This document shows, piece by piece, positions 1 through 43,004 of a stretch of 64,000 nucleotides of DNA. The position numbers and the translations under genes were made by a program. The notes under the pieces were generated by a model, which was given only the letters and a program-made list of their open reading frames with translations, ran no database searches and was not told the DNA's origin. Source of the DNA: Escherichia coli. Lineage in GTDB: Bacteria > Pseudomonadota > Gammaproteobacteria > Enterobacterales > Enterobacteriaceae. How positions within the stretch are numbered: the stretch's first letter is position 1; the number at the start of each line of letters is the position of its first letter. The stretch is taken from assembly GCF_041248615.1 (NCBI RefSeq), contig NZ_CP158426.1. One strand, written 5' to 3'.

Positions 1-71
1 TCTGGAGCGTTTCGTTGGAAGGTATTTGCAGTTTTCGCAGATGATGTCGGTGAAACTTCGTCGCTGTCGCC

Positions 72-599
72 TCATGCCGCCCTCCTGACGCCCTGCCCGA
101 TCGCCATCAATGCCGCTTTGGATACGGTAGTAAACATCCGTCGAGGACTGATGAACGGTCGCCAAATCAGCAGCATGGAGCCTTTGCTGTTTCCCTTCTT
201 CTCCAGCCCTGTCGATGGTTCGATAAAATTAATCCGTCCATCAGTGATAATGCGAACTTCGTCGACACTCTCCAGAGCCTTGCTGAACCATCCGACTGAC
301 ATATCCTCTGGCACAAGCATAACTACCGTCTGTCGCTGTTGTATGCACTGCTCAGCGGCTTTTTCCACCCACGGCCTGATATTGCTGTACGGCGGGTTAT
401 TCCAGATTGCACCGTGGCTTACCCACTCAGAATTTAGCGCGTCGTCAGCCTCAGTTAGCCAGTGAGCGCACAGAGCATTTTTGTCGCTCGCTGCCGAATC
501 CAGCCAGAATCCAAACTCAATATCCAGTGCATCAAAAAGCCAAAGCGGCGTTTGCCAGCAGTCCTTGTCGTGTGCTGGCGTATTTGATTTGATAGTCAT
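72..599 (-). CDS. Phage DNA N-6-adenine methyltransferase (Dam-like)
   Basis: ORF track 72..659 trimmed to ATG at 599, which overlaps the ninB stop (ATGA). Protein contains NNPPYS (the N6-adenine MTase NPPY motif). Position after ninB is typical of lambdoid nin regions. Confidence 0.6.
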
Positions 600-1036
600 G
601 CAGCCCGATCTCCCCATCGCGCTTTCCATTCGAGAGCTAGTCGCGCTTCGTCTGACCACTTAACGCCACGCTCTGTACCGAATGCCTGTATAAGCTCTAA
701 TAGCTCCGCAAATTCGCTTACACGCATCCTGCTGGTTGACTGGCCTATTACCACAAAGCCATTCCCGGCAAGGTTAGGAACAACGTCCTGCTGCTTTAAT
801 GCTGCTGTAAAAACGCACTTCCAGCTTTCTGCATCCAGCCAGCGACCATGCCATTCAACCTGACGAGAGACGTCACCAAGGCAAGCCCAAAGCTTTCGAT
901 TCTGGTCTAAGCTGCGGTTGCGTTCCTGAATAGTTACTACGATTGGTTTGGTTGGGTCTGGAAGGATTTGCTGTACTGCGTGAATAGCGTTCTGCTGATG
1001 TGCTGGAGATCGAATTTCAAAGGTTAGTTTTTTCAT
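596..1036 (-). CDS. ninB: NinB recombination protein
   Basis: 146 aa from MKKLTFEIRSPAHQQNAIHAV...; matches lambda NinB as remembered. ORF track 596..1054 with the internal MKK start chosen. Confidence 0.85.
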   Translation of the reverse strand: MKKLTFEIRSPAHQQNAIHAVQQILPDPTKPIVVTIQERNRSLDQNRKLWACLGDVSRQVEWHGRWLDAESWKCVFTAALKQQDVVPNLAGNGFVVIGQSTSRMRVSEFAELLELIQAFGTERGVKWSDEARLALEWKARWGDRAA

Positions 1037-1116
1037 GACTTCCCTCTCCCCCAAATAAAAAGGCCTGCGATTACCAGCAGGCCTGTTATTAGCTCAGTGA
1101 TGTAGATGGTCATCTT

Positions 1117-1389
1117 TTAACTCCATATACCGCCAATACCCGTTTCATCGCGGCACTCCTTAAAAATTAGGTTCGTGCTCATCTTTCCTTCCCGTTCTTC
1201 CTTGGTAGCAAACCGGTAATACACCGTTCGCCAGACCTTACCTTCGATAACCAGAAGACCTGCCCGTGCCATTTTAGCCGCGGCCTGATTTATGCTGGTT
1301 ACTGTTGCGCCTGTTAGCGCGGCAACGTCCGGCGCACAGAAGCTATTATGCGTCCCCAGGTAATGAATAATTGCCTCTTTGCCCGTCAT
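1117..1389 (-). CDS. ren: Ren-like protein with divergent C-terminus
   Basis: 90 aa MTGKEAIIHYLGTHNSFCAPDVAALTGATVTSINQAAAKMARAG... matches lambda Ren over most of its length, then diverges at the C-terminus. Start overlaps the P stop (ATGA). Confidence 0.7.
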   Translation of the reverse strand: MTGKEAIIHYLGTHNSFCAPDVAALTGATVTSINQAAAKMARAGLLVIEGKVWRTVYYRFATKEEREGKMSTNLIFKECRDETGIGGIWS

Positions 1390-2087
1390 ACACTTGCTCC
1401 TTTCAGTCCGAACTTAGCTTTGAGTTCTGCGATCTTCGCCAGAGCCTGTGCACGATTTAGAGGTCTACCGCCCATAACAGGAAGTTGTTTTACTGGTTCA
1501 GGTATCGTCTCACCACGGTTAATTCGCGCTGTCATACAGGTCAGTTCATCGGCAGCCTTGCGCCGTAATTCCGCGTCAGTCAGCGCATTGGCCCGCATGT
1601 TCTGGTACAAGTTGGTAACCAACCAGTAATGCGCGTTCGATTTCCACGGATAAGACTCTGCATCCGGATACAGGCCACGCTTCCGGCAATACTCGTAAAC
1701 CATATCAACCAGCTCGCTGACGTTTGGCAGCCCGGCGTTAACGGATGCTTCTTCCCGGCACCAGGCGACAAACTGCCCGGGTGATGGCAGGAATGGTCGA
1801 TTCTGCCGACGGGCTACGCGCATTCCTGCGTTAACCTGTTCCATTGTGGTGATCCCGTTTTCCCGGAAAGCCAGAACCCACTGGCGGCGGATTTCGTTCA
1901 GTTCATTCTGGTCACGGTTAGCCAGGCTCGCCGGGAAAGTTGCCAGTAACTGGCTGAACACACCGTTGATGATCTGCGCTACCTGCTGTACCTGCGGCTT
2001 TTCGTCGTACTGTTCCGGCATGTTGTTGGCGATCCGACGCATCTGCTCACGGTCAAAGTTAACCATCTGTGCGGCGATGTTTTTCAT
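1386..2087 (-). CDS. P: Replication protein P (DnaB helicase loader)
   Basis: 233 aa MKNIAAQMVNFDREQMRRIANN...; near-identical to lambda P from memory. Start overlaps the O stop. Confidence 0.9.
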   Translation of the reverse strand: MKNIAAQMVNFDREQMRRIANNMPEQYDEKPQVQQVAQIINGVFSQLLATFPASLANRDQNELNEIRRQWVLAFRENGITTMEQVNAGMRVARRQNRPFLPSPGQFVAWCREEASVNAGLPNVSELVDMVYEYCRKRGLYPDAESYPWKSNAHYWLVTNLYQNMRANALTDAELRRKAADELTCMTARINRGETIPEPVKQLPVMGGRPLNRAQALAKIAELKAKFGLKGASV

Positions 2088-2983
2088 AAATCCACCCCGT
2101 AAATCCAGTCAGTGTTTGTCAGGTCGAGTTTTGGTTTGCTGGCTATCATGCCTGCCTGTTGCTTGTTACGGTTGATTTCGAGCTGGGTCCACTTGTCGCG
2201 GAGTTTGGCCGGACTCAGCACGTTACCGGACCAGAAGTTGTCCTGGCATGCCCAGCGGAACAGTACACACATATCGCGGTGGTTACGTCCGTCACGTTCA
2301 CGCATCAGGCGGATATCGTTAGCCCACCCTGCAAAATTCGGTTTTCTGGCTGATGGCGCGATGGTCTTCACCATGTCAAACATCCACTCTGCGGCGGTCA
2401 GGTCTTCTGCTGTCCCCCACTTGCTGCCGCTCTGAATTGCAGCATCCGGTTTCACCACAGGAAGATCGTTTTCTGGCTGGTCAGAGGATTCGCCAGAATT
2501 CTCGGACGAATAATCTTTTCTTTTTTCTTTTGTAATAGTGTCTTTTGTGTCCCTCTGTTTTGAGGGATAGCAATCCCCCAATTTGAGGGATGTTTTATCC
2601 CTCGTTTTAGGGGATTTTCCCTCGTTTTGAGGGATACACCATTCTGAGATGTTTTTATTTGGTCCAAACATGCCGCCTTGCTGCTTGATAATATTCATTC
2701 TGACGAGTTCTAACTTGGCTTCATTGCACCGTTTGACAGGTAACTTTGTAATCTCGCTAAGTTGAGAATCGGTGATTCTGTCCATTGGTTTATTCCACCC
2801 ATAGGTTTTACGCAGAATGGCAAGCAGCACTTTAAACTGTCGCTTGGTCAGATCTGCGCCTGAATAAGCCTCAAGCAGCATATTTGATAGTCTGGCGTAA
2901 CCATCATCGAGATCTGCCACATTACGCTCCTGTCCGGCAAAGTTACCTCTGCCGAAGTTGAGTATTTTTGCTGTATTTGTCAT
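2084..2983 (-). CDS. O: Replication initiator protein O
   Basis: ORF track 2084..3028 trimmed to MTNTAKILNFGR... (299 aa), the lambda O start. The gene contains the ori iterons. Confidence 0.9.
   Translation of the reverse strand: MTNTAKILNFGRGNFAGQERNVADLDDGYARLSNMLLEAYSGADLTKRQFKVLLAILRKTYGWNKPMDRITDSQLSEITKLPVKRCNEAKLELVRMNIIKQQGGMFGPNKNISEWCIPQNEGKSPKTRDKTSLKLGDCYPSKQRDTKDTITKEKRKDYSSENSGESSDQPENDLPVVKPDAAIQSGSKWGTAEDLTAAEWMFDMVKTIAPSARKPNFAGWANDIRLMRERDGRNHRDMCVLFRWACQDNFWSGNVLSPAKLRDKWTQLEINRNKQQAGMIASKPKLDLTNTDWIYGVDL
2551..2636. repeat. ori-lambda-type iterons (four ~19 bp O-binding repeats) inside the O gene
   Basis: Four direct repeats of the form (a)tccctc-N6-gaggga(t) at about 2551-2569, 2573-2592, 2597-2616 and 2618-2636, with an AT-rich tract next to them at 2500-2550. 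Confidence 0.75.
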
Positions 2984-2984
2984 A

Positions 2985-3060
2985 ATGACTCCTGTGGATT
3001 GATCCAGTCTTTCTACATCAGGCCTCAAAACTGTTGCAGCAGTCTTGAGGCTTTTCTTTT
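2985..3060 (+). ncRNA. Candidate oop-like antisense RNA ending in an intrinsic terminator
   Basis: On the + strand a 7 bp stem gcctcaa/ttgaggc (3022-3028 / 3045-3051) is followed by ttttctttt. It overlaps the last codons of the cII-like gene on the opposite strand, as lambda oop does. The 5' end is not determinable from sequence. Confidence 0.35.
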
Positions 3061-3296
3061 GTCAGCACCATGGCTACTTTCTTTGCTAGCTTTGCTAATT
3101 CCTCGTCTTCAACACCCCACTCCAGCACAGCCAGAAGCATGGCCATCTTTGGGATAAAGCTGTCTTTCCATCGCGAAATTTGCGATTCATTAATCCCTAA
3201 TGCATCAGCAACCTTTCGCTGACCACGTACAGCAATTCGATTCAGGATGTTGCTTGTGATTGCATTCGCTTTCTTGCGAGTACTTGTAAGTTGCAT
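3018..3296 (-). CDS. CII-like lysogeny activator (P22 C1-type)
   Basis: ORF track 3018..3383 trimmed to ATG at 3296 (MQLTSTRKKANAITSNILNRIAVRGQRKVADALGINESQISRW...). HTH protein similar to CII/C1 family as remembered. Sits between cro and O. Confidence 0.7.
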   Translation of the reverse strand: MQLTSTRKKANAITSNILNRIAVRGQRKVADALGINESQISRWKDSFIPKMAMLLAVLEWGVEDEELAKLAKKVAMVLTKEKPQDCCNSFEA

Positions 3297-3353
3297 ATGT
3301 AAGTATTTCCTTAACAAATAAGAAGTTATACGCACCAACTGATGCGCGTTGTA

Positions 3354-3398
3354 TTCCCGCATTTCGGCGGGAATAAGGACCATGACTGTTAAAGAGCA
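3354..3398 (-). promoter_or_regulatory. nutR (boxA-like and boxB hairpin) on the rightward transcript
   Basis: Reverse complement contains tgctctttaac (boxA-like) and the hairpin cccgccgaaatgcggg, the same boxB sequence as nutL. Located between cro and the cII-like gene, as in lambda. Confidence 0.5.
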
Positions 3399-3404
3399 AT
3401 TTGC

Positions 3405-3590
3405 TTATGCCGCTTTGCGATAAGCACTTTCTTGATACTTCAGGGCGCCAGCTGTAACGACTTCCAGTCGATAGGCGTCTTTCTCTGGGATGACTTCCTT
3501 CCACTGAGAAACTGCTGCATCGCTAATGCCTAACGCTTTAGCTACCGCACGCTGGGTTCCGAAGTGGTCGATAACATCTTTCTTGTACAT
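3405..3590 (-). CDS. cro: Cro repressor (P22-type)
   Basis: 61 aa MYKKDVIDHFGTQRAVAKALGISDAAVSQWKE...; matches P22 Cro as remembered. Divergent from the repressor gene. Confidence 0.8.
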   Translation of the reverse strand: MYKKDVIDHFGTQRAVAKALGISDAAVSQWKEVIPEKDAYRLEVVTAGALKYQESAYRKAA

Positions 3591-3670
3591 AGACTCGCTC
3601 CGAAATTAAAGAACACTTAAATTATCTATCAAAGGAATCTTAAGTCAAGTTTATTTAAGATGTCTTAACT
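3591..3670. promoter_or_regulatory. OR operator / PR-PRM divergent promoter region
   Basis: 80 bp AT-rich spacer between divergent cro and c2, with repeated atttaag / cttaa(a/g)t half-site-like motifs (atttaagatgtcttaact, aatcttaagtc) resembling P22-type operators. Confidence 0.5.
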
Positions 3671-4321
3671 ATGAATACACAACTGATGGGTGAGCGTATT
3701 CGCGCTCGCAGAAAAGAACTTAAGATTAGGCAGGCTGCCCTTGGCAAGATGGTTGGCGTGTCTAATGTTGCTATTTCCCAATGGGAGCGTTCTGAAACTG
3801 AGCCCAATGGCGAAAACCTATTGGCTTTAGCCAAGGCTTTACAGTGCTCCCCTGATTACTTGTTGAAAGGAGAAGATAGTCTTTCAAACATTGCCTATCA
3901 CAGCAGGCATGATCCAAGAGGTTCGTATCCTCTAATTAGTTGGGTAAGCGCAGGATGTTGGATGGAAGCTGTAGAGCCATATCATAAGCGTGCAATAGAT
4001 AACTGGTACGATACAACCGTAGATTGTTCAGAAGATTCGTTTTGGCTGGACGTAAAGGGTGATTCGATGACGGCTCCAGCCGGTCTTAGCATCCCGGAAG
4101 GGATGATAATACTAGTCGATCCTGAAGTAGAACCTCGTAATGGGAAGCTGGTAGTGGCAAAGCTCGAAGGAGAAAACGAGGCAACTTTCAAGAAGTTAGT
4201 TATTGATGCTGGCAGAAGGTTTCTAAAACCACTTAACCCACAATATCCGATGATTGAGATCAACGGGAACTGCAAAATCATCGGTGTAGTTGTCGATGCA
4301 AAAATAGCAAACCTTCCATAA
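3671..4321 (+). CDS. c2: Prophage repressor (P22 C2-like)
   Basis: 216 aa MNTQLMGERIRARRKELKIRQAALGKMVGVSNVAISQWE... with an N-terminal HTH and a C-terminal LexA-like self-cleavage domain; matches P22 C2 from memory. Confidence 0.9.
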   Translation: MNTQLMGERIRARRKELKIRQAALGKMVGVSNVAISQWERSETEPNGENLLALAKALQCSPDYLLKGEDSLSNIAYHSRHDPRGSYPLISWVSAGCWMEAVEPYHKRAIDNWYDTTVDCSEDSFWLDVKGDSMTAPAGLSIPEGMIILVDPEVEPRNGKLVVAKLEGENEATFKKLVIDAGRRFLKPLNPQYPMIEINGNCKIIGVVVDAKIANLP

Positions 4322-4343
4322 GGGGCATTCGCCCCTTTTTTTC
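4322..4343 (+). terminator. Intrinsic terminator after c2
   Basis: Hairpin ggggcattcgcccc followed by an 8-T tract immediately after the c2 stop. Confidence 0.5.
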
Positions 4344-4440
4344 TTTCCTTTAAAAATCAAAGCAAAACTTAAACTTCGCAATAAAATTTAAGTTTTCTTC
4401 AAAAACACTCTTGACCAATAATTAAAGAAATCTTAAATTT
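4344..4440. promoter_or_regulatory. OL / PL operator-promoter region (candidate)
   Basis: AT-rich region with aatttaagttttctt and aaatcttaaatttaag motifs similar to those in the OR region, upstream of nutL and N. Confidence 0.4.
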
Positions 4441-4485
4441 AAGTCATCAGCAGGACGCTGGTAGCCAAACGGAACAGATTGGCAG

Positions 4486-4526
4486 GCTCTTTAACATTGA
4501 TGGGATTGTCCCGCCGAAATGCGGGA
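4486..4526 (+). promoter_or_regulatory. nutL (boxA gctctttaac plus boxB hairpin)
   Basis: gctctttaac at 4486-4495 and hairpin tcccgc-cgaaat-gcggga at 4509-4526, upstream of N. The boxB is identical to the nutR copy. Confidence 0.5.
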
Positions 4527-4633
4527 ACCAAAGAGTAGTTGGCTTTGGGGTGACGTGAAGTGCAGCTGCACGACGGCAACCGGAAGATAAGCACCCGGCG
4601 CGTCACCGCCAAAGTCAATCATCGGAGGTCAAC

Positions 4634-4933
4634 ATGGCAGTAGTCATTACATATCTGGCTGACGATAACGCCAGAAATCGCCGCAGAGCACGCAGACAGG
4701 CTCAACGTGAACAGGCAATGCAAGAACAGCGACTGGCGCGAAAGATTGCGCTAAAGCTCTCTGGTTGCGTCAGAGCAGATAAAGCAGCATCACTCGGAAG
4801 CCTTCGCTGCAAGAAGGCAGAAGAGGTCGAGAGTAAACGGAATCGTATTTACTACCGCAAGCCACGCAGTGAAATGGGTGTGACTTGTGTTGGTCGCCAG
4901 AAAATGAAATTAGGCAGTAAGCCACTTATTTGA
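4634..4933 (+). CDS. N: N-type transcription antiterminator (phage-21-like)
   Basis: 99 aa with an arginine-rich N-terminal motif (NARNRRRARRQAQREQ) and C-terminus GRQKMKLGSKPLI resembling lambda/phage 21 N. Located downstream of nutL. Confidence 0.75.
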   Translation: MAVVITYLADDNARNRRRARRQAQREQAMQEQRLARKIALKLSGCVRADKAASLGSLRCKKAEEVESKRNRIYYRKPRSEMGVTCVGRQKMKLGSKPLI

Positions 4934-4944
4934 GAGGAATTAAT

Positions 4945-5568
4945 ATGTCATCAATCCGCTTAACTACGAGAATGAAAGAGGAAATCGCTCGTAACGCTTT
5001 AATTAAGTCTGGGGTTTTCACTGAACTTGAAGAAGTAACAAAGTTAAAGAACCAGCTTGCACTTGACGCCAGAGTTATTGCGTTTGGCGGTAAAAAGAAA
5101 ACTGAGGAAGTGGATCAGTTATCATCCAAGTTGGTAGCTATAAGTGAAGAACTTGAAAAGATGGGATGTTCATTTTACTCATACGATGTTCGTTCTACTT
5201 CAATTTATCTGACTGTATCTGGCAGAAGGGTTGGATGGCTTTCATATGGGAAAGACGGCAACGGCGAAGATATATTGCTCCCTGCTCCGAACAAAGATAA
5301 ATGCATGTTTAGCGCAGAACACGAAATAACAAAAAGGTTTGATGAAATCTGCGCATTGCAACAAAAACTTGAAGCCAAGAAAAAGGATATCGAATCAAAT
5401 GTATGGGCTGCTTTGAACTCAGTCACAACAGTTAAGCGACTTATTGAAGTTTGGCCTGAAAGCAAAGAGTTGCTACCAAAAGAAGCAGATAAAGCAAGTA
5501 CAGCACTTCCTGCTTTACGGGTAGAAGATTTGAATAAGATGATTGGACTTCCTTCCGAGGCCGCATAG
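4945..5568 (+). CDS. Hypothetical protein (207 aa), no family recognised
   Basis: ORF track 4930..5568 trimmed to ATG 4945 preceded by gaggaa. Occupies the ral/sieB position between N and cIII. Confidence 0.5.
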   Translation: MSSIRLTTRMKEEIARNALIKSGVFTELEEVTKLKNQLALDARVIAFGGKKKTEEVDQLSSKLVAISEELEKMGCSFYSYDVRSTSIYLTVSGRRVGWLSYGKDGNGEDILLPAPNKDKCMFSAEHEITKRFDEICALQQKLEAKKKDIESNVWAALNSVTTVKRLIEVWPESKELLPKEADKASTALPALRVEDLNKMIGLPSEAA

Positions 5569-5605
5569 TCGGCCTTTATTTTTGGCATAAACAACAGAGG
5601 TGAAT

Positions 5606-5740
5606 ATGAACGCAGTTGAATTTGCAAAATGGATGGCAGAGCAAGATATCACAGGAGCCGACGAAAAGGCTGTGTACTACATGGCTCTGCTATGGATTCA
5701 CAAAGCAAAAGAGGCTGCAAATGCTCTTGGAGGTGAGTGA
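5606..5740 (+). CDS. Hypothetical small protein (44 aa)
   Basis: ATG at 5606 preceded by agagg; the stop overlaps the next start (TGATG). Not in the ORF track because it is under 60 aa. Confidence 0.3.
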   Translation: MNAVEFAKWMAEQDITGADEKAVYYMALLWIHKAKEAANALGGE

Positions 5741-5925
5741 TGTGCGAGTTTTATGAAGCAGATATCAAACGCCCAGAAATGGCAAGTGATGCGACATTAC
5801 GTGATTACTTCGCAGCAAAGTTCATGCAGGGAGTTTGTGCAAATCCAGACAGGCTTTATGACAACGAACCACTTGCTAAAGAAGCTTATGCGATGGCAGA
5901 CGCAATGCTCAAAGCTCGCGAATAA
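5740..5925 (+). CDS. Hypothetical small protein (61 aa)
   Basis: ORF track 5737..5925, with ATG at 5740 translationally coupled to the upstream small ORF. Confidence 0.4.
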   Translation: MCEFYEADIKRPEMASDATLRDYFAAKFMQGVCANPDRLYDNEPLAKEAYAMADAMLKARE

Positions 5926-6059
5926 GCACTGTGTATTCATTCCAACGAGTGAATACACGGAGCAATGTCGCTCGTAACTAAACAGGAGCCGACTTGTTCT
6001 GATTATTTGAAATCTTCTTTGCCCTCCGATGTGAGGGCAATTTTTTTGATGGAGGATAT

Positions 6060-7025
6060 ATGAGTGAAGTAACAGATTTAGTTGTTATTGAAAAAGCAAA
6101 TGCAATGACTGTATTTCAGTCTGCCGACCAGATTGAAGAAATCCTTCAAAAGGTTGAACGTGAAGTTATGTCCTTTGTGCCTGATATCACAACGGCAAAG
6201 GGCAGAAAGGAGATCGCTTCTCTGGCGTATAAAGTTGCGCAGACGAAAACATATCTCGATGGTCTTGGCAAAGACCTTGTTGCTGAACTGAAGGAAATTC
6301 CAAAGCTAATTGATGCCAACCGCAAGACAGTGCGTGATCGCCTTGATGAGCTGAAAGCCAAGGCACGCCAGCCTCTTACTGATTATGAGGAAGAACAGGC
6401 GCGGATTAAAGCCGAAGAGGAAGCTAAGGCAGCAGCTGAAGCCCTCGCAAAGCAAATTGAGTCTGACCATGAAATAGCGATTTTGATGGATCGCGAATTT
6501 GACCGCAAAAGAGAAGAGGCAAGACTCAAAGTGGAGCAGGAAAAGCGAGAGCATGAAGAACTCTTAAAAAGAGAAGCTGAAGAGAAAGCCAGAGCAGAAG
6601 CCGAAGCAAAGGCAAAAGCCGAAATTGAAGCAGCAGCAAGGCGAGAAGCAGAAGCTAAGGCAGCAGCGGAACGTGCAGAGCGTGAACGCATTGAAGCCGA
6701 GCAACGAGCACAGCGCGAAGCAAAAGAGGCAGCAGAACGAGCTGAAAGAGAAAAGCAGGCAGCAATTGAAGCAGAACGCCGAAAAGCACAGGAGGAGGCT
6801 GAACGAATCCGTCGCGATGCTGAAGCAAAAGAGCAAGCCAGAATAGCAGAAGAAAAAAGAATCAAGGAAGAAGAGCGTAGAGCAAAGGATAAAGCTCACC
6901 GGAAAGAAGTAAATAACAAAATACTTGCTGACCTTATCAAGGTTGGCGCATCAGAAGATGTTGCTAAAAATATCATAACAGCCATCGTAAAAGGCGAAGT
7001 ATTCGCAACAAAAATAACCTACTAA
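6060..7025 (+). CDS. Coiled-coil protein (321 aa) with a long Ala/Glu/Lys/Arg-rich low-complexity core
   Basis: ORF track. N-terminal approx 100 aa are of ordinary composition, followed by an approx 170 aa AEAKA/EAERR-type repeat and a short C-terminal domain. Antisense ORFs in the track here are repeat artefacts. Confidence 0.55.
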   Translation: MSEVTDLVVIEKANAMTVFQSADQIEEILQKVEREVMSFVPDITTAKGRKEIASLAYKVAQTKTYLDGLGKDLVAELKEIPKLIDANRKTVRDRLDELKAKARQPLTDYEEEQARIKAEEEAKAAAEALAKQIESDHEIAILMDREFDRKREEARLKVEQEKREHEELLKREAEEKARAEAEAKAKAEIEAAARREAEAKAAAERAERERIEAEQRAQREAKEAAERAEREKQAAIEAERRKAQEEAERIRRDAEAKEQARIAEEKRIKEEERRAKDKAHRKEVNNKILADLIKVGASEDVAKNIITAIVKGEVFATKITY

Positions 7026-7049
7026 TAAAACCAACATAAGGAACCACCC

Positions 7050-7196
7050 ATGATTTACGCAATCGCGGGAGGCGCTCGCATGGGTGCCTTCCAACTAAAT
7101 GAATCTTTACTTGAACGAATCACCCGTAAATTACGTGACGGATGGAAACGCCTTATCGACATACTTAATCAGCCAGGAGTCCCCAAAAATGGATAA
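7050..7196 (+). CDS. cIII: CIII-like FtsH inhibitor
   Basis: 48 aa MIYAIAGGARMGAFQLNESLLERITRKLRDGWKRLIDILNQPGVPKNG; the central ESLLERITRKLRDGWKRLIDILNQPGVPKNG matches lambda CIII as remembered. RBS aaggaacc. Not in the ORF track. Confidence 0.7.
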   Translation: MIYAIAGGARMGAFQLNESLLERITRKLRDGWKRLIDILNQPGVPKNG

Positions 7197-7302
7197 AACA
7201 CTTATGGCTATCCAGACTAAATTCACTATCGCCGCTTTTATTGGCGATGAAAAGATGTTTCGTGAGGCCGTCGAAGCCTACAGAAAATGGAGGTCAAAAT
7301 GA
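7189..7302 (+). CDS. kil: Kil-like host-killing / division inhibitor protein
   Basis: 37 aa MDKTLMAIQTKFTIAAFIGDEKMFREAVEAYRKW..., resembling lambda Kil from memory. Overlaps the cIII end. The longer track ORF 7099..7302 overlaps cIII in another frame. Confidence 0.6.
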   Translation: MDKTLMAIQTKFTIAAFIGDEKMFREAVEAYRKWRSK

Positions 7303-7487
7303 TTCCGGTAGAACTGGCGAAAACTCCAGAGTTAAGTCGATTAAAAAGAGAATATCACATTGCTGAGGCTCGTTACTGGCGTAAAGCGGGAGATAAATCA
7401 AAGAAACAACTTTGCTTATGGCAGGCACAAAGAGAGCGCATGAATGAGCGTGAGTTTCTTTCCTCCCCATCCGAATTACCATTCTGA
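7299..7487 (+). CDS. Hypothetical small protein (62 aa)
   Basis: ATG at 7299 overlaps the kil stop; ORF track 7287..7487. Confidence 0.4.
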   Translation: MIPVELAKTPELSRLKREYHIAEARYWRKAGDKSKKQLCLWQAQRERMNEREFLSSPSELPF

Positions 7488-7495
7488 GGCAAATT

Positions 7496-8176
7496 ATGGG
7501 AACTGCGACATTAATACTCGGTGAATCTGGCACCGGAAAATCAACCAGCATGAGAAATATCAATCCAGAGGAAGCAATACTTATAAAACCAATAGGCAAG
7601 CCGCTTCCATTTAAATCAAAAGACTGGCTGGCATGGGATGCCAGAGCAAAAAAAGGAACCGTAGTTACCACTGACAAATGGGACGTAATAGTTGCCGTAA
7701 TTAAGCGTGCTCACGAATACGGGAAAAGAATCGTTATTGTTGATGACTTCCAGTATGTGATGAGCAATGAGTTTATGCGCCGCTCAGAAGAAAAATCGTT
7801 TGATAAATTCACTGAGATAGGCCGCCACGCATGGGAGGTGATTAAGGCTGCACAGGATGCACCTGATGACCTGAGAGTCTATTTTCTTGCGCACACCGAA
7901 GAAACCCCTATGGGGCGTGTGAAAATGAAGACTATCGGCAAAATGCTGGACGAGAAAATCACTGTCGAAGGCATGTTTACTATAGTTCTTCGCACCCTTA
8001 CCCGCGATGACCAGTTCTTTTTCACCACGAAAAACAACGGTGCAGACACTGTTAAATCCCCAATGGGAATGTTTGATTCTAATGAGATTGATAACGATCT
8101 CTCTTTCGTCGATGCCACTGTTTGTGATTACTACGGCATCAATAATGTTCATCAAATTAAGGAAAACGCCGCATGA
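7496..8176 (+). CDS. Sak4-type RecA-fold ATPase (putative phage single-strand annealing / recombination protein)
   Basis: 226 aa with Walker A GESGTGKST near the N-terminus and a Walker B-like IVIVDDF. Its size and its pairing with an SSB-like gene fit the Sak4 family. Confidence 0.65.
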   Translation: MGTATLILGESGTGKSTSMRNINPEEAILIKPIGKPLPFKSKDWLAWDARAKKGTVVTTDKWDVIVAVIKRAHEYGKRIVIVDDFQYVMSNEFMRRSEEKSFDKFTEIGRHAWEVIKAAQDAPDDLRVYFLAHTEETPMGRVKMKTIGKMLDEKITVEGMFTIVLRTLTRDDQFFFTTKNNGADTVKSPMGMFDSNEIDNDLSFVDATVCDYYGINNVHQIKENAA

Positions 8177-8760
8177 GCAACGTGATTTTTACTTATAACG
8201 AAGAAGCAGCACTGACCGCAGGGCAAGGTGGTTTTATTAACGAAACTGGTGCTCATATCATTACCATTACTGAAGCAGAACTAAAGCAATCAGAAAAAGG
8301 AGCCAAATTTATTGAGTTTTCTGGCGAATCTGACGACGGACGTAAAATCCAATATCTTAGCGTCTGTGTTCAGAAAAATGACGGAACGGAAAACAAATTT
8401 GGCGCAAATGTCGTTCACGCCATGATGGGGTGTGCCGGGATTGGACAATTAACGCAACATATGGTTTCCGCCAGTAAATTTGTTGCTCCTGAGTTTCATG
8501 GAAAGAAAATCGGGTTAGTGCTCCAGAAAGTATTAACCACAAACAAAAAGACTGGCGCAGACAGCTACCAGATGGAAATACGCATCCCGTTTATTGCACA
8601 AACAGGTCAAACCCTTAAAGAAAAGGCGGAAGGCAAGCAACCAGAAACTATCGCCAACATGGTTGCCAGCCTCAAAGATAAAGACAATCGCTCTAAAAAC
8701 GTAAGCCAGAATCATGCAGATGATTATGGTTACAGCCAGAACGATTACCCTCCATTCTAG
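8173..8760 (+). CDS. Phage SSB-like protein (DUF2815-type partner of Sak4)
   Basis: 195 aa; start overlaps the Sak4 stop. C-terminal acidic/aromatic tail ...DDYGYSQNDYPPF resembles the SSB C-terminal tail. Confidence 0.5.
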   Translation: MSNVIFTYNEEAALTAGQGGFINETGAHIITITEAELKQSEKGAKFIEFSGESDDGRKIQYLSVCVQKNDGTENKFGANVVHAMMGCAGIGQLTQHMVSASKFVAPEFHGKKIGLVLQKVLTTNKKTGADSYQMEIRIPFIAQTGQTLKEKAEGKQPETIANMVASLKDKDNRSKNVSQNHADDYGYSQNDYPPF

Positions 8761-8785
8761 ATTATTGCAAAATAAGGATTCCATT

Positions 8786-9082
8786 ATGCCAGCGCCTCTG
8801 TATGGTGCGGATGACCCGCGCAATTGCTCCGGTAGCTCCAAGGCGGAGGTGCTGGAAAATATCAAAAACAATTTCGACGCGTTTCTTGCTCTGACACCAG
8901 AAACAAAAGCAGAACGGATGTACCGACGCGATATACAACTCGCGCTAAAACAGGAGAAGGACCGAACAAACGAAACAGCAATGAGACCGTTGCGAAAAGC
9001 GACAATAGACAAATTCCCTGAATATATCGACCCGCGCCTGCGTAATTACCGCTCACGCTATGGCGCTATCAGTAATGACTGA
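8786..9082 (+). CDS. Hypothetical protein (98 aa)
   Basis: ORF track 8714..9082 trimmed to ATG 8786 with RBS aaggatt. Confidence 0.45.
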
Positions 9083-9092
9083 GGAATTTACA

Positions 9093-9260
9093 ATGAGAGG
9101 ACTTGCATACAATCCCGGCATTCTTCCGGCAGAAATGATTATTCGCCAACGCGTAAAGCCAATGCCATCGAGAGAGGAATTGCTTAAGAGAAATTCTTTT
9201 CCGTCAGTAAATCAAAACAAATATCTGAATGCGATGTGGCGCAAAGGAGGCAAGCAGTGA
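9093..9260 (+). CDS. Hypothetical small protein (55 aa)
   Basis: ATG 9093 preceded by gagga; within track ORF 9060..9260. Confidence 0.35.
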
Positions 9261-9556
9261 GTGTATATCTTATTGATAAACGTCGACGTGGGCAACAAAT
9301 ACCACCTGTAGGAATTCCGAATCACACATGGTTTTGCGTACTTGATATCGATGGTATGGATGCGTTGGTTGACACTCGTCATTACTGCGATACCGCAACA
9401 GCTACTCCGGCGAAAGCAAAGAAAATGGCTGCTCTGATAGAAAACTGGACTCCACCTGATGGTTGGTGCAATGGGAATGATCGAGATTGGCATGAAAAAA
9501 TGAAGGGCTATATCTGCGATTTCTTACGTAAATGCAACGGCTTCAGGGTGATGTGA
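9257..9556 (+). CDS. Hypothetical protein (99 aa; GTG start assumed)
   Basis: Track ORF 9236..9556. aggagg at 9245-9250 favours GTG 9257 as the start, overlapping the upstream stop. Start is uncertain. Confidence 0.4.
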
Positions 9557-9557
9557 C

Positions 9558-10175
9558 ATGAACAAGATTGACTATCAGGCACTGCGTGAAGCGGCAGAGC
9601 AGGCAATGCATGACGACTGGGGATTTGACGCAGACCTTTTCCATGAATTGGTAACACCATCGATTGTGCTGGAACTGCTGGATGAACGGGAAAGAAACCA
9701 GCAATACATCAAACGCCGCGACCAGGAGAACGAGGATATTGCGCTAACGGTAGGGAGGCTTCGCGTTGAGCTGGAAGGCAAAGACAGCAAAATAGCCAAT
9801 CTTACCGCCGAACGCGATGCTCTTCGTGAAGGTGAGATGGGCGACGCTAGGCATAGCAACACACGGGCCGCAGCTGATATCTACTTCCAACTGGTCGAGG
9901 AGTGCGAAATTCCTGCTGGCGGATCTCTGGTCGAGTACGTTGACGATATGCGCGAGAAGCTGGAAGCTGCAGAGAAGCGCATTGCAGAGTTAGAAAGTGG
10001 TTCTCAGGCACAAAAGTTAGTTGAAGCAATCATTGTTGCGATAGAAAACGAACAGGAAAGGCTTTTTGATGAAGATTACCTAATGGATTCGAAAGAATGC
10101 ATTGACGTAATTCGTGAAGAAGTAAAGCGATGGAATGATTCCCGTGCCGCTGGCATTCGCATCAAAGGAGAGTGA
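9558..10175 (+). CDS. Hypothetical coiled-coil protein (205 aa), possibly Ea22-like
   Basis: ORF track. Acidic, coiled-coil-rich. Lies in the ea/b2-equivalent region between the recombination module and xis. Family assignment is by recollection only. Confidence 0.4.
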   Translation: MNKIDYQALREAAEQAMHDDWGFDADLFHELVTPSIVLELLDERERNQQYIKRRDQENEDIALTVGRLRVELEGKDSKIANLTAERDALREGEMGDARHSNTRAAADIYFQLVEECEIPAGGSLVEYVDDMREKLEAAEKRIAELESGSQAQKLVEAIIVAIENEQERLFDEDYLMDSKECIDVIREEVKRWNDSRAAGIRIKGE

Positions 10176-10176
10176 T

Positions 10177-10719
10177 ATGACCACTATAACCGATAAGAAA
10201 CAGTATCCCAGCGAGCAATATCTTAATGAGCTGATCACCAACATAGAGTTTGCTGCAAGGGCACCAGTTGAAGTCGTGAGAGCGATGGCAGCAGAGCTAC
10301 AGAAGCGGCGCGAAGCTGATAGTGCAGAACCTGCAAGTAATCATGAAGAGTTGCCGCTTGATTATCTCCAAGGTCAAAAAGATGGTCTTGAATGGGCTGC
10401 GCAGCTTGCAGAAGCAAATCACCCACAAACTGGCGACTGGCTTTACGATGACCCGCTGGAGCTGGCTAAAGCTATCAGAAAAGGTCCTGACATGCCCGAA
10501 TTCGATGGACCAACTCCGGTAACTCCGGATGGTTGGATAAGCTGTAGTGAGCGAATGCCCGCTCAAGATGATTGGATTTTAATTTATTCAAAGCACGGCG
10601 AGTATATGGCAGGACAGGTACAAGGGGAATACGTGGAGTTGAGCGACGGCACTTTATCGTGGTTAGGGAACGCCTTGTACTGGATGCCTCTACCGGAACC
10701 GCCGCAGGAGGTGAAGTGA
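10177..10719 (+). CDS. Hypothetical protein (180 aa), C-terminal DUF551-like domain
   Basis: Track ORF 10135..10719 trimmed to ATG 10177 with RBS aaaggagag. C-terminal W/Y-rich segment (GWISCSERMP...DDWILIY...WMPLPEPP) resembles DUF551. Confidence 0.45.
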   Translation: MTTITDKKQYPSEQYLNELITNIEFAARAPVEVVRAMAAELQKRREADSAEPASNHEELPLDYLQGQKDGLEWAAQLAEANHPQTGDWLYDDPLELAKAIRKGPDMPEFDGPTPVTPDGWISCSERMPAQDDWILIYSKHGEYMAGQVQGEYVELSDGTLSWLGNALYWMPLPEPPQEVK

Positions 10720-10997
10720 TGGACTCCTTCGCGAAATATACGATTATTGACTGGATAGCCTTCCTTCAGGTTTTACTCATCTGGTTTTATATGGCTTACA
10801 GGAGTGGACAGTGGATTGTCAGTATAGCCTGTAGCAAGGGATGGCGTTGGTGGAACCGAAAGAATAAAAAAGCACTGGCATTGGATTCGTTTTACGAAGC
10901 ATTCAATCTTAACAGCCTTCAGCCTGGTTCTGTCGTTGTAGTCACCACTCAAAGCGGCATGACGATACAAATTCACAAGCCAAAGGATGAAAAATGA
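10719..10997 (+). CDS. Hypothetical small membrane protein (92 aa)
   Basis: ATG 10719 overlaps the upstream stop, RBS ggagg. One hydrophobic segment (IIDWIAFLQVLLIWFYMAY). Confidence 0.4.
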   Translation: MDSFAKYTIIDWIAFLQVLLIWFYMAYRSGQWIVSIACSKGWRWWNRKNKKALALDSFYEAFNLNSLQPGSVVVVTTQSGMTIQIHKPKDEK

Positions 10998-11083
10998 TGT
11001 GGCCTATATGCGTTAATTGCGGACGGATGTGCCTATCTGGATGGTGCCGAAAGTGCGACAAATGCACGAAGAAAAGACAATAA
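10994..11083 (+). CDS. Cys-rich micro-ORF (29 aa, CxxC-x3-C-x4-CxxCxxC)
   Basis: MMWPICVNCGRMCLSGWCRKCDKCTKKRQ; start overlaps the upstream stop. Very short, so it may not be translated. Confidence 0.25.
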   Translation: MMWPICVNCGRMCLSGWCRKCDKCTKKRQ

Positions 11084-11142
11084 CAATCCTCGCACTCGCG
11101 GGGATTTCTTTTATCTGAACTCGCTACGGCGGGTTTTGTTTT

Positions 11143-11454
11143 ATGGAGATGATTATGGCCTGTTCAACATTCACCACTTTAACGTTACAGAAATACCAGC
11201 CAGACCCTGAAGATTTATACTCACTGTGTGGCGGAAATCATGGTAAAGCCGCCATGATCGAATGTAAGGACAAAATCCACATATGCCTTAATTGCGTTGA
11301 TGTCCTCGTTGATATCAAAAATGAAAGAGAAGATAAAAAGCGTAGCGAGGCTATTCGCGCCTTAGATTCATGGATGCGAGATGGGTATAGTGCTGCGCAA
11401 ATTTATGACTTAGCCATTTCAAAAGGCGAAATACCAGGAGTGCGCATCGAATAA
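11143..11454 (+). CDS. Hypothetical protein (103 aa)
   Basis: ORF track; followed by an intrinsic terminator. Confidence 0.4.
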   Translation: MEMIMACSTFTTLTLQKYQPDPEDLYSLCGGNHGKAAMIECKDKIHICLNCVDVLVDIKNEREDKKRSEAIRALDSWMRDGYSAAQIYDLAISKGEIPGVRIE

Positions 11455-11496
11455 GACGTAACCAATATTCGAATTGAAGAACTGAAAGAACACCAA

Positions 11497-11518
11497 GCCG
11501 CCTGATGGCGGTTTTTTC
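11497..11518 (+). terminator. Intrinsic terminator upstream of xis
   Basis: Stem gccgcc/ggcgg with loop tgat, followed by tttttt. Confidence 0.5.
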
Positions 11519-11544
11519 TTGCGTGTAATTGCGGAGACTTTGCG

Positions 11545-11763
11545 ATGTACTTGACACTTCAGGAGTGGAATGCACGCCAGCGACGCCCAAGAAGCCTTGA
11601 AACAGTTCGTCGATGGGTGCGCGAATGCAGGATATTCCCTCCTCCGGTTAAGGATGGAAGAGAATATCTGTTCCACGAATCAGCGGTAAAGGTTGACTTA
11701 AATCGACCAGTAACAGGTAGCCTTTTGAAGAGGATCAGAAATGGGAAGAAGGCGAAGTCATGA
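11545..11763 (+). CDS. xis: Excisionase Xis
   Basis: 72 aa MYLTLQEWNARQRRPRSLETVRRWVRECRIFPPPVKDGREYLFHESAVKVDL...; matches lambda Xis from memory. Overlaps the int start. Confidence 0.9.
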   Translation: MYLTLQEWNARQRRPRSLETVRRWVRECRIFPPPVKDGREYLFHESAVKVDLNRPVTGSLLKRIRNGKKAKS

Positions 11764-12811
11764 GCGCCGGGATTTACCCCCTAACCTTTATATAAGAAAC
11801 AATGGATATTACTGCTACAGGGACCCAAGGACGGGTAAAGAGTTTGGATTAGGCAGAGACAGGCGAATCGCAATCACTGAAGCCATACAGGCCAACATTG
11901 AGTTATTTTCAGGACACAAACACAAGCCTCTGACAGCGAGAATCAACAGTGATAATTCCGTTACGCTACATTCATGGCTTGATCGCTACGAAAAAATCCT
12001 GGCCAGCAGAGGAATCAAGCAGAAGACACTCATAAATTACATGAGCAAAATTAAAGCAATAAGGAGGGGGCTGCCTGATGCTCCACTTGAAGACATCACC
12101 ACAAAAGAAATTGCGGCAATGCTCAATGGATACATAGACGAGGGCAAGGCGGCGTCAGCCAAGTTAATCAGATCAACACTGAGCGATGCATTCCGAGAGG
12201 CAATAGCTGAAGGCCATATAACAACAAACCCTGTCGCTGCCACTCGCGCAGCAAAATCAGAGGTAAGGAGATCAAGACTTACGGCTGACGAATACCTGAA
12301 AATTTATCAAGCAGCAGAATCATCACCATGTTGGCTCAGACTTGCAATGGAACTGGCTGTTGTTACCGGGCAACGAGTTGGTGATTTATGCGAAATGAAG
12401 TGGTCTGATATCGTAGATGGATATCTTTATGTCGAGCAAAGCAAAACAGGCGTAAAAATTGCCATCCCAACAACATTGCATGTTGATGCTCTCGGGATAT
12501 CAATGAAGGAAACACTTGATAAATGCAAAGAGATTCTTGGCGGAGAAACCATAATTGCATCTACTCGTCGTGAACCGCTTTCATCCGGCACAGTATCAAG
12601 GTATTTTATGCGCGCACGAAAAGCATCAGGTCTTTCCTTCGAAGGGGATCCGCCTACCTTTCACGAGTTGCGCAGTTTGTCTGCAAGACTCTATGAGAAG
12701 CAGATAAGCGATAAGTTTGCTCAACATCTTCTCGGGCATAAGTCGGACACCATGGCATCACAGTATCGTGATGACAGAGGCAGGGAGTGGGACAAAATTG
12801 AAATCAAATAA
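11741..12811 (+). CDS. int: Tyrosine integrase Int (lambda-type)
   Basis: 356 aa MGRRRSHERRDLPPNLYIRNNGYYCYRDPRTGKEFGLGRD...; essentially lambda Int from memory. The adjacent P' arm and core follow. Confidence 0.95.
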   Translation: MGRRRSHERRDLPPNLYIRNNGYYCYRDPRTGKEFGLGRDRRIAITEAIQANIELFSGHKHKPLTARINSDNSVTLHSWLDRYEKILASRGIKQKTLINYMSKIKAIRRGLPDAPLEDITTKEIAAMLNGYIDEGKAASAKLIRSTLSDAFREAIAEGHITTNPVAATRAAKSEVRRSRLTADEYLKIYQAAESSPCWLRLAMELAVVTGQRVGDLCEMKWSDIVDGYLYVEQSKTGVKIAIPTTLHVDALGISMKETLDKCKEILGGETIIASTRREPLSSGTVSRYFMRARKASGLSFEGDPPTFHELRSLSARLYEKQISDKFAQHLLGHKSDTMASQYRDDRGREWDKIEIK

Positions 12812-12884
12812 TGATTTTATTTTGACTGATAGTGACCTGTTCGTTGCAACAAATTGATAAGCAATGCTTTTTTATAATGCCAAC

Positions 12885-12899
12885 TTAGTATAAAAAAGC
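12885..12899. other. att-lambda common core (attL junction: host B arm - core - phage P' arm)
   Basis: The + strand carries ttagtataaaaaagc, the reverse complement of the lambda core GCTTTTTTATACTAA. It is flanked on the phage side by the lambda P' arm (gttggcattataaaaaagcattgcttatcaatttgttgcaacgaacaggtcactatcagtcaaaataaaatcatta on the reverse strand) and on the host side by caggcttca, as in E. coli attB. Confidence 0.85.
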
Positions 12900-12945
12900 A
12901 GGCTTCAACGGATTCATTTTTCTATTTCATAGCCCGGAGCAACCT

Positions 12946-40354: not shown

Positions 40355-41146
40355 TTACATCGCGTTCAGACGTTTTTGCGCCTGTTTAGCGCCATCAGTA
40401 CCAGGGTATTTACTGATAACCTGCTGGTATACGGCTTTCGCTTTTGCGGTATCACCTTTGTCCTGCATGATGACGCCGACTTTAAACATCGCATCTGCAG
40501 CCTTTGGTGACTTCGGATAGTTTTTCACTACCGAAGCAAAATAATACGCCGCATCATCTTTTTTACCCTTGTTGTAGTTTAACTGACCCAGCCAATAATT
40601 GGCGTTTGGCAGGTAAGTTGAATCAGGGTAATTTTTGATGAAATTCTGAAATGCCACCATTGCGTCATCCTGGCGGGATTTATCCTGCACCAGCGCAATA
40701 GCTGCATTGTAATCCGTGTTTGCATCACCGCTTTTCACCGGCGCGCCAGCATTCGCAGTACCAGCATCAGCTGTCGGCGTCGTTGATGCCGCCGCACCGC
40801 TTTGATCGCCGCTGGTTGATTGCGCCGCTGCACCACCGCTGCTGAGGCTATCGATCTGCAACAGGATCTGCTTTTGCCGCTCCACGACCTGATTCAGTTG
40901 ATACTGATTTTCCTGAATCTGACCACGCAGGGAATCAATATCGGATTGATTATCAGAGAGTTGTTGCTGGAGTTGGGTTAAAAGCTGGCTGTGAGCATTT
41001 GAAATACGCTCAAGTTGAGTGACGCGGTCTTCGACCGAGCCTGAGCCGACACTACTGATTGGTGCCTGAGCAAAAGCGGCCCAGGGGGCCGCTATACCAA
41101 CCAGTAACGACAGACTCAATAGTTGATGTCTGAAGTTACTGCTCAT
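40355..41146 (-). CDS. cpoB: Cell division coordinator CpoB (YbgF), TPR protein
   Basis: 263 aa with signal peptide, coiled coil and C-terminal TPR repeats; downstream of pal. Confidence 0.9.
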   Translation of the reverse strand: MSSNFRHQLLSLSLLVGIAAPWAAFAQAPISSVGSGSVEDRVTQLERISNAHSQLLTQLQQQLSDNQSDIDSLRGQIQENQYQLNQVVERQKQILLQIDSLSSGGAAAQSTSGDQSGAAASTTPTADAGTANAGAPVKSGDANTDYNAAIALVQDKSRQDDAMVAFQNFIKNYPDSTYLPNANYWLGQLNYNKGKKDDAAYYFASVVKNYPKSPKAADAMFKVGVIMQDKGDTAKAKAVYQQVISKYPGTDGAKQAQKRLNAM

Positions 41147-41155
41147 GCAATTCTC

Positions 41156-41701
<546 letters not shown>

Positions 41702-41711
41702 TTAATTATTA

Positions 41712-43004
41712 TCACAGATACGGCGACCAGGCAGGGAATTTGACCTGTCCATCAGTTGCCGGAAGACGCGCTTTGAAACGCCCATCTGTAGAAACCAAAT
41801 TCAGCACGGATCCCATCCCCTGAGAAGAGCTGTAGATTACCATAGTGCCGTTAGGTGCCAGACTTGGCGTTTCATCCAGGAACGTGGACGACAGAACTTG
41901 TACGCCTCCCGTTGCCAGATCTTGTTTGGCAATGTGCTGCTGCCCACCATTGGAGCTGACCATTACCATAAATTTACCGTCGCTGCTGACATCCGCATCC
42001 TGGTTCTGCGAACCTTCCCAGGTAATACGTTGTGGCGCACCGCCGTTGATATTCACTTTATAAACCTGTGGACGACCGGCCTGGTCAGAAGTAAATGCCA
42101 GGTTCTGGCTGTCCGGGAACCAGGTCGGTTCGGTATTGTTACTGCGACCATCCGTCACCTGGCGGATCTGACCAGAAGCCAAATCCATTACGTACAGGTT
42201 CAGACTACCGGTTTTCGACAAGGCGAATGCCAGTTTGCTGCCGTCTGGCGAGAATGCAGGTGCACCGTTGTGACGCGGGAATGAAGCCACCTGACGTACA
42301 GCGCCATTTGCCAGCGTTTGGATGACCAGCGCGGAACGACCGCTTTCGAAGGTCACATAAGCCAGTTTAGAACCGTCTGGTGACCACGCCGGAGACATCA
42401 GCGGCTGCGGTGAACGGTGAACGACAAACTGGTTGTAACCGTCATAGTCAGATACGCGCAGTTCATACGGGAACTGACCGCCGTTGGTCTGAACAACGTA
42501 GGCAATACGGGTACGGAACGCACCTTTAATGCCGGTCAGTTTTTCAAACACTTCATCACTGGCGGTATGACCAGCATAACGCAGCCACTGCTTGTTCACT
42601 TTGTACGAGTTCTGAGCAAGTACAGTACCCGGTGCGCCGCCAGTGTCAACAAGTTGATAAGCAACATTGTAAGAACCATCCGGATTCGGAGTGACCTGAC
42701 CGACAACTACAGCGTCAATGCCCAGTGCGGACCATGCAGCTGGTTGTACTTCCTGCGCACTACCCGGCTGCTGTGGCAGACGAGCGCGATCTAACGGATT
42801 AAATTTACCGCTGTTACGCAAGTCAGCAGCAACGATGCCGCCAATATCTTCAGGTGCCGCACCAGGACCCGCCCACTGGAAAGGAACAACTCCAATAGGA
42901 CGACCGGAATCTACACCGCTGTCGATCACAATGCGGACTTCAGCATGCAGAACTGATGCCCACAGTATGAGAAAACCAAATGCTACTCGTAATGCCTGCT
43001 TCAT
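41712..43004 (-). CDS. tolB: Tol-Pal system periplasmic protein TolB
   Basis: 430 aa from [21 protein letters not shown]; beta-propeller. Confidence 0.95.

Follow-up and report, generated by a model that had tools for sequence, protein, structure and literature searches.

A phage N-6-adenine methyltransferase, with GATC as its predicted target, between ninB and ninE of an Escherichia coli lambdoid prophage

Phage Dam enzymes and the family of the window protein

Four methyltransferases of Pfam family PF05869, the family of the gene reported here, have been characterised, and in all of them GATC is the primary site. HP1 Dam of a Haemophilus phage (orf13, 173 aa) has been cloned and described as a Dam methyltransferase (Piekarowicz & Bujnicki 1999, as cited in PMC7556043), T1 Dam (M.EcoT1Dam, 237 aa) is G(m6A)TC-modifying according to PMC4996451, and the prophage enzyme M.Btr190III, whose 35% identity is to T1 Dam and does not refer to the protein studied here, was cloned and showed G(m6A)TC together with off-target activity (PMC4996451). 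Lastly, lactococcal M.Phi93DAM (140 aa), encoded between the terminase genes of the lytic phage Phi93, yielded the SMRT motif G(m6A)TC on phage DNA and, when expressed alone in Lactococcus lactis, turned the DNA DpnII-resistant and DpnI-sensitive, in a host devoid of its own GATC methylation in the controls of that study (PMC4190342). The function of phage Dam enzymes has been described as "still not well understood" (PMC7556043).

We analysed a stretch of 64,000 nucleotides of E. coli (contig NZ_CP158426.1 of assembly GCF_041248615.1), hereafter the window, for which an earlier note, made from the letters alone, had proposed a phage-encoded Dam-like N6-adenine methyltransferase with an NPPY motif at positions 72-599. 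The position stands as given, and the strand, which had been left unstated, is the minus strand. The 175-aa open reading frame is undoubtedly real: the protein matches PF05869 "DNA N-6-adenine-methyltransferase (Dam)" over its full length (residues 4-169 on profile positions 1-167 of 169) with 218 bits for a cutoff of 28.1 and E=6e-65, far beyond chance. With the NCBIfam equivalog TIGR01712 "phage N-6-adenine-methyltransferase" it reaches 266 bits, the cutoff being 97, and it also matches PHROG 111. The family is a large one, with 8784 clusters (50% identity) recovered at E<=0.001 in an exhaustive HMMER scan. In an alignment of 55 diverse full-length homologues, T17, D34, N68, P70, R122, and F125 are invariant, and conservation is at least 90% at P18, A37, W59, P69, Y71, L95, W104, and N137; every one of these residues is present in the window protein, so that the enzyme looks intact. 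The profile matches, residue conservation, and predicted fold together bear out the proposal of a phage-encoded N6-adenine methyltransferase.

HP1 Dam shares with the window protein 38% identity over residues 1-148, a similar size, and the same WxTP, D-x-A-A, and NPPY motifs. Its gene is, like the window gene, an early-operon gene of a temperate phage, where it comes last, but that phage is P2-like and the gene does not lie beside ninB. T1 Dam (33% identity) comes likewise from an E. coli phage, in this case a virulent one, and differs in being extended by 48 residues at its N-terminus and in carrying 14 additional residues ahead of the conserved R-x-x-F hairpin. In M.Phi93DAM (33% identity), as in the window protein, NPPY is the only recognisable classical motif; the lactococcal protein is shorter, its hairpin is truncated, and it lacks the C-terminal helix. 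A number of database entries fuse the PF05869 domain to NinE (P0002, 233 aa, 41 member sequences), NinB, CII, or RusA; these fusions are probably due to read-through or to gene calling across ATGA junctions. In other, separate relatives, which measure ~500-690 aa, the methyltransferase domain forms the C-terminus behind a large unknown region (fusion and large-relative entries are P0002, P0005, P0011, P0013, P0117, P0139-P0147, and P0242).

The term Dam-like deserves some care. It holds for the probable target, GATC as in the four family members, and not for homology to E. coli or T4 Dam beyond the common fold: the window protein gave no sequence-family match to PF02086, the alpha-class family of both Dam enzymes, and only ~105-107 residues of E. 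coli Dam/T4 Dam superpose on it. The target-recognition domain of Dam consists of a helical bundle and a hairpin, and it has no counterpart in the 175-aa protein. The shared GATC specificity of phage and host enzymes has been treated as convergent (PMC5537653). Several other prophage-borne orphans are also annotated as DNA adenine methyltransferases, namely M.EcoGV/M.EcoPA8orf6770P (MT-A70), M.EcoMIV (PF02086), and Hia5, but they belong to other families with DPPW or DPPY motifs and occupy other genome positions. M.EcoPA8orf6770P, for instance, has a DPPW motif and is encoded near int, and this Stx-phage enzyme methylates 16S rRNA with a partner protein. We rejected as guides to specificity the data on M.EcoGV/M.EcoPA8orf6770P (MT-A70/DPPW), on M.EcoMIV (PF02086), and on Hia5, Hin1523, and Nma1821 (relatives of Dam/T4 Dam). 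The GANTC-specific NPPY/F/W phage enzymes of Alphaproteobacteria were dismissed as relatives as well (PhiLM21_p027 is without a Pfam match and shows no significant similarity to the window protein, E=9.6); had they belonged to the same family, the case for GATC would have been weakened. The window protein should thus be confused neither with the MT-A70 rRNA enzyme of E. coli prophages, nor with PF02086 enzymes, nor with non-specific enzymes.

A mosaic cassette in the nin region

The gene and the elements around it are as follows.

1..75, minus strand: ninE, 5' portion, truncated at the window edge; 25 residues match PF05322 NinE (E=1e-14)
72..75, minus strand: ATGA in which the methyltransferase TGA (74..72) shares bases with the ninE ATG (75..73)
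72..599, minus strand: CDS of the phage N-6-adenine methyltransferase (T1/HP1 Dam family), 175 aa; ATG 599..597, TGA 74..72; PF05869, TIGR01712, PHROG 111
387..398, minus strand: codons of catalytic motif IV, N68-P-P-Y71 (residues 68-71 of the methyltransferase)
596..599, minus strand: ATGA in which the ninB stop (TGA 598..596) shares bases with the methyltransferase ATG (599..597)
596..1036, minus strand: ninB (orf), recombination mediator, 146 aa; PF05772 (E=1e-54), PHROG 72
610..615, minus strand: GGGGAG, Shine-Dalgarno-like as read from the sequence and with that putative function, within the 3' end of ninB and 10 nt 5' of the methyltransferase ATG
1061..1084, minus strand: intrinsic terminator-like hairpin AGGCCTGC-loop-GCAGGCCT followed by TTTTTATTT (T-run), upstream of ninB and inside the block 96% identical to lambda
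3621..3648, minus strand: pR-like sigma-70 promoter, TTGACT-16 nt-GATAAT (10/12 matches), between cI and cro; start of the operon

A longer reading frame of 195 aa from a GTG start (659..72) was rejected, as the N-termini of homologues, HP1 Dam included, align at the ATG. The methyltransferase does start on the ninB stop codon, as had been noticed, through the ATGA at 599..596; a second ATGA, which had been missed, joins its own stop to the ninE start at 75..72. The earlier note had described the gene as coupled to ninB; the first overlap is, however, not a specific functional link. In the near-identical relative presented below, 4-nt overlaps occur at six of the eight gene junctions from O to Q, overlapping genes are a general property of all lambdoid nin regions (PMC8022706), and in HP1, T1, and Phi93, which are non-lambdoid phages, the homologous gene does not stand beside ninB.

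Over its first 25 kb, the window agrees at 99.8% identity with E. coli NRZ14408 (NZ_LT599825.1), in which the element is a lambdoid prophage of ~41 kb inserted between ybhB and ybhC, that is, in the lambda attachment region. Gene order is cro-cII-O-P-ren-ninB-dam-ninE, and the complete ninE measures 183 bp in this relative. When compared with lambda, the window shows 96% nucleotide identity from cII/O up to and including the final nucleotide of the ninB stop (lambda 41084), including a block of ~2.4 kb from O through ninB at the same 96%, and identity returns at lambda 42097, 7 nt inside ninE. Window positions 72..599 consequently stand opposite lambda 41085..42096, which hold ninC and ninD. 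Because lambda identity breaks at the ninB stop and resumes just inside ninE, the 528-bp methyltransferase gene is, on this alignment, a mosaic cassette set at gene junctions in place of ninC and ninD. In the near-identical relative, ninH is also missing from the nin region. The enzyme was rightly called an orphan, being flanked by ninB and ninE, and no restriction enzyme appears among the ~70 annotated genes of the NZ_LT599825.1 prophage, a count that rests on annotation.

Several features of the prophage may be recorded here. A ren-like open reading frame of 90 aa without Pfam match lies at window 1117..1389 on the minus strand, and its counterpart is annotated as frameshifted in NZ_LT599825.1. 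The near-identical prophage (L001 5400..32700) combines a lambda-like early region with late genes for baseplate J/gp47, baseplate plug, and spike; tRNA-Thr and tRNA-Asn follow directly downstream of Q, two acyltransferase genes lie at the ybhB end, and a NinI-type phosphatase gene is frameshifted.

The methyltransferase gene is an ordinary, common, and already annotated phage gene. Of 5426 complete E. coli genomes, 1565 (roughly 29%) contain the 528-bp sequence at a threshold of at least 95% identity, with a maximum of five copies in one genome. The 1.1-kb ninB-dam-ninE block occurs in 425 phage records, among them HK140, mEp043, mEp332, SfI, Sf101, ECP1, many Stx1 and Stx2 phages, and Salmonella phages; DNA identity across this region reaches 97.7-98.5% in HK140, mEp043, SfI, Sf101, and ECP1. 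A 100% identical protein is encoded by phage Stx2 II (AP005154) and by Stx1a-converting phages, and that of mEp332 is identical at 99.4% of amino acids. Lambdoid and Stx phage copies thus share the same slot at 99-100% protein identity, with no difference of substance, and the E. coli prophage copy of NZ_LT599825.1 (WP_000153259.1) departs by two amino acids, V60I and V112I. RefSeq already names the product "phage N-6-adenine-methyltransferase" between NinB and NinE; with a curated NCBI equivalog model and identical proteins in published Stx phage genomes, this methyltransferase is known. Literature searches by family identifier, nin region, and product name retrieved no functional study of the lambdoid copy. 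The question arises as to why a predicted GATC methyltransferase that duplicates a host activity is present in ~29% of complete E. coli genomes.

Target, site reading and proposed role

Since four diverged PF05869 members have been reported as GATC enzymes, GATC is the best prediction for the window protein, and we consider this target quite probable on grounds of homology. The explanation that we favour, with a probability of about 0.7 for the whole, is that of an AdoMet-dependent GATC methyltransferase carried in a lytic-phase nin cassette and supplementing the host Dam, in which homology points to the target, gene position to the timing, and the benefit is our suggestion. Transcription from pR would take place only once repression is lifted and would reach the gene when N-type antitermination allows passage through the tR2-like terminator, and translation would proceed as one unit within the tightly overlapping ninB-dam-ninE string. 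The enzyme would then methylate the adenine of 5'-GATC-3' in double-stranded DNA, this adenine presumably being flipped into the NPPY pocket as in other N6-adenine enzymes. During lytic growth, host Dam would thereby be supplemented, and rapidly replicating phage DNA would enter virions with all of its GATC sites methylated, irrespective of the Dam status of the host; it has been reported that host Dam leaves the virion DNA of lambda and P22 under-methylated (PMC8022706). In the next host, the methylated virion DNA would be protected against enzymes that cut unmethylated GATC (MboI/DpnII type), as for the lactococcal family member, and the hemimethylated state read by MutH and SeqA would be shortened. 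The earlier suggestion of protection from host restriction may accordingly be kept as a possibility, by analogy with M.Phi93DAM, for which DpnII protection is the one benefit demonstrated in the family (PMC4190342).

A GATC-specific enzyme might also serve its phage in a manner other than anti-restriction, either because rapid completion of GATC methylation would spare the replication and recombination intermediates of the phage from MutH nicking and SeqA sequestration, or through phage regulation or packaging. The gene is located among the replication and recombination genes O, P, ninB, and ninG, E. coli is already Dam-positive, and PMC4190342 cites phage P1 as needing GATC methylation for packaging. 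It is also true that GATC is depleted about two-fold in the prophage, with 28 sites observed for 60 expected in window 1-12900 and 105 for 207 in the whole relative prophage (L001 5400..47500), against 212 for 250 in the adjacent host DNA. We set GATC density aside as functional evidence because E. coli mobile elements in general are reported to show such under-representation (PMC4659465). On the other side, lambda holds the unrelated ninC and ninD in this slot, so that the function is dispensable for the replication/recombination module, and DpnII protection is the sole phenotype shown for any family member. A benefit of this second kind seems to us rather unlikely, albeit the most serious competitor of the lytic-phase anti-restriction role.

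How such a small protein recognizes its site, with no solved relative, is a question in its own right. The predicted structure (pLDDT 95) corresponds to a minimal adenine-N6 methyltransferase core, for which structural comparison gave PCIF1 (11.4), M.TaqI (10.1), E. coli Dam (9.8), M.BseCI (9.8), MmeI (9.8), and CamA (9.2). As many as 144 of the 175 residues can be aligned structurally with such enzymes; in the predicted model, the protein therefore consists of one domain, a class-I methyltransferase core, and has no separate target-recognition domain. The class of target-recognition domain, a search for which had been recommended with the original proposal, thus receives a clear answer. Candidate DNA-reading elements would be the conserved N-terminal WxTP segment and the hairpin 120-141 with R122, F125, and N137. 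Neither phmmer nor a 55-sequence profile found a solved relative among PDB chain sequences, and a match to Mediator Med31 was discarded as a chance "WCNPPYS" string.

One may argue from this missing domain that the enzyme has relaxed specificity, or methylates adenine outside GATC, and confers broad anti-restriction like Hia5 or M.EcoGI/GII. Prophage-borne non-specific adenine methyltransferases do exist (PMC3299994), and within the same family M.Btr190III modified many related sequences when over-expressed (PMC4996451). However, the known non-specific enzymes fall in other families, Hia5 being related to Dam/T4 Dam, whereas all four characterised PF05869 members have GATC as primary site, and the conservation across 55 homologues of the putative DNA-facing residues R122 and F125 (invariant) and N137 (at least 90%) fits one common specificity. 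We regard relaxed or non-GATC activity as improbable. To the same low degree we would credit the idea that the 4-bp site is read in a manner absent from solved methyltransferases, for example by a palindrome-bound dimer through the R122/F125/N137 hairpin, or that in lambdoid phages the activity is relaxed or directed to single strands or replication forks together with the neighbouring recombination proteins. Either option, if true, would make this very common prophage gene the representative of an anti-defence methyltransferase class that is new in structure or in function.

Expression and methylation of the lysogen

The position of the gene is that of a delayed-early nin gene, as had been proposed: it lies between P/ren and Q in the pR operon, with overlapping codons, downstream of the terminator-like hairpin at 1084..1061, which we take to occupy the position of lambda tR2. 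The methyltransferase strand showed no promoter-like site between the terminator-like site and the gene. From its location behind both a pR-like promoter and a tR2-like terminator, it follows that the gene would be silent under CI and dependent on antitermination. By position, the enzyme should be made in lytic growth and be silent in the lysogen. Window 4634..4933 (plus strand), directly downstream of cI on the pL side, encodes a 99-aa arginine-rich protein ("NARNRRRARRQAQREQ") without Pfam match, possibly the N-type antiterminator needed to pass the terminator upstream of ninB.

The earlier note had also suggested that the lysogen may acquire a distinct methylation motif; on this reading, the enzyme would be expressed in the lysogen and give the host a new motif or epigenetic regulation. 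Apart from the fact that orphan methyltransferases can be regulators in general, nothing specific speaks for it. The promoter is CI-repressed and followed by a terminator, and the predicted motif is the one already methylated by host Dam, so that a new motif in the lysogen is unlikely. Two methylome studies found prophage methyltransferases silent in lysogens (PMC4996451; PMC4659465); in the first of them, the comparable prophage enzyme M.Btr190III left no trace in the methylome of its lysogen. We consequently hold expression in the lysogen with such effects to be very improbable. A predicted G(m6A)TC product would be invisible against host Dam; the comparison of lysogen and cured methylomes that had been put forward as a check is probably uninformative, and a negative outcome would not refute enzyme activity. 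The practical value of the present analysis lies in these corrected expectations, namely that the protein is not a homologue of host Dam and should be silent in the lysogen.

We give hardly any credit to the view that the protein is a mis-annotated RNA (e.g., rRNA) enzyme paralleling partner-dependent M.EcoPA8orf6770P. The window protein has NPPY instead of DPPW and yields no MT-A70 profile match, and a partner protein seems not to be required.

A second putative nucleic-acid-modification gene was observed in the prophage. Window 4945..5568 (plus strand), in the early-left (pL) operon, encodes a 207-aa protein matching PF18757 Nmad5 ("nucleotide modification associated domain 5") with E=1.5e-71, and the corresponding gene of the relative is annotated as "Nmad5 family putative nucleotide modification protein".
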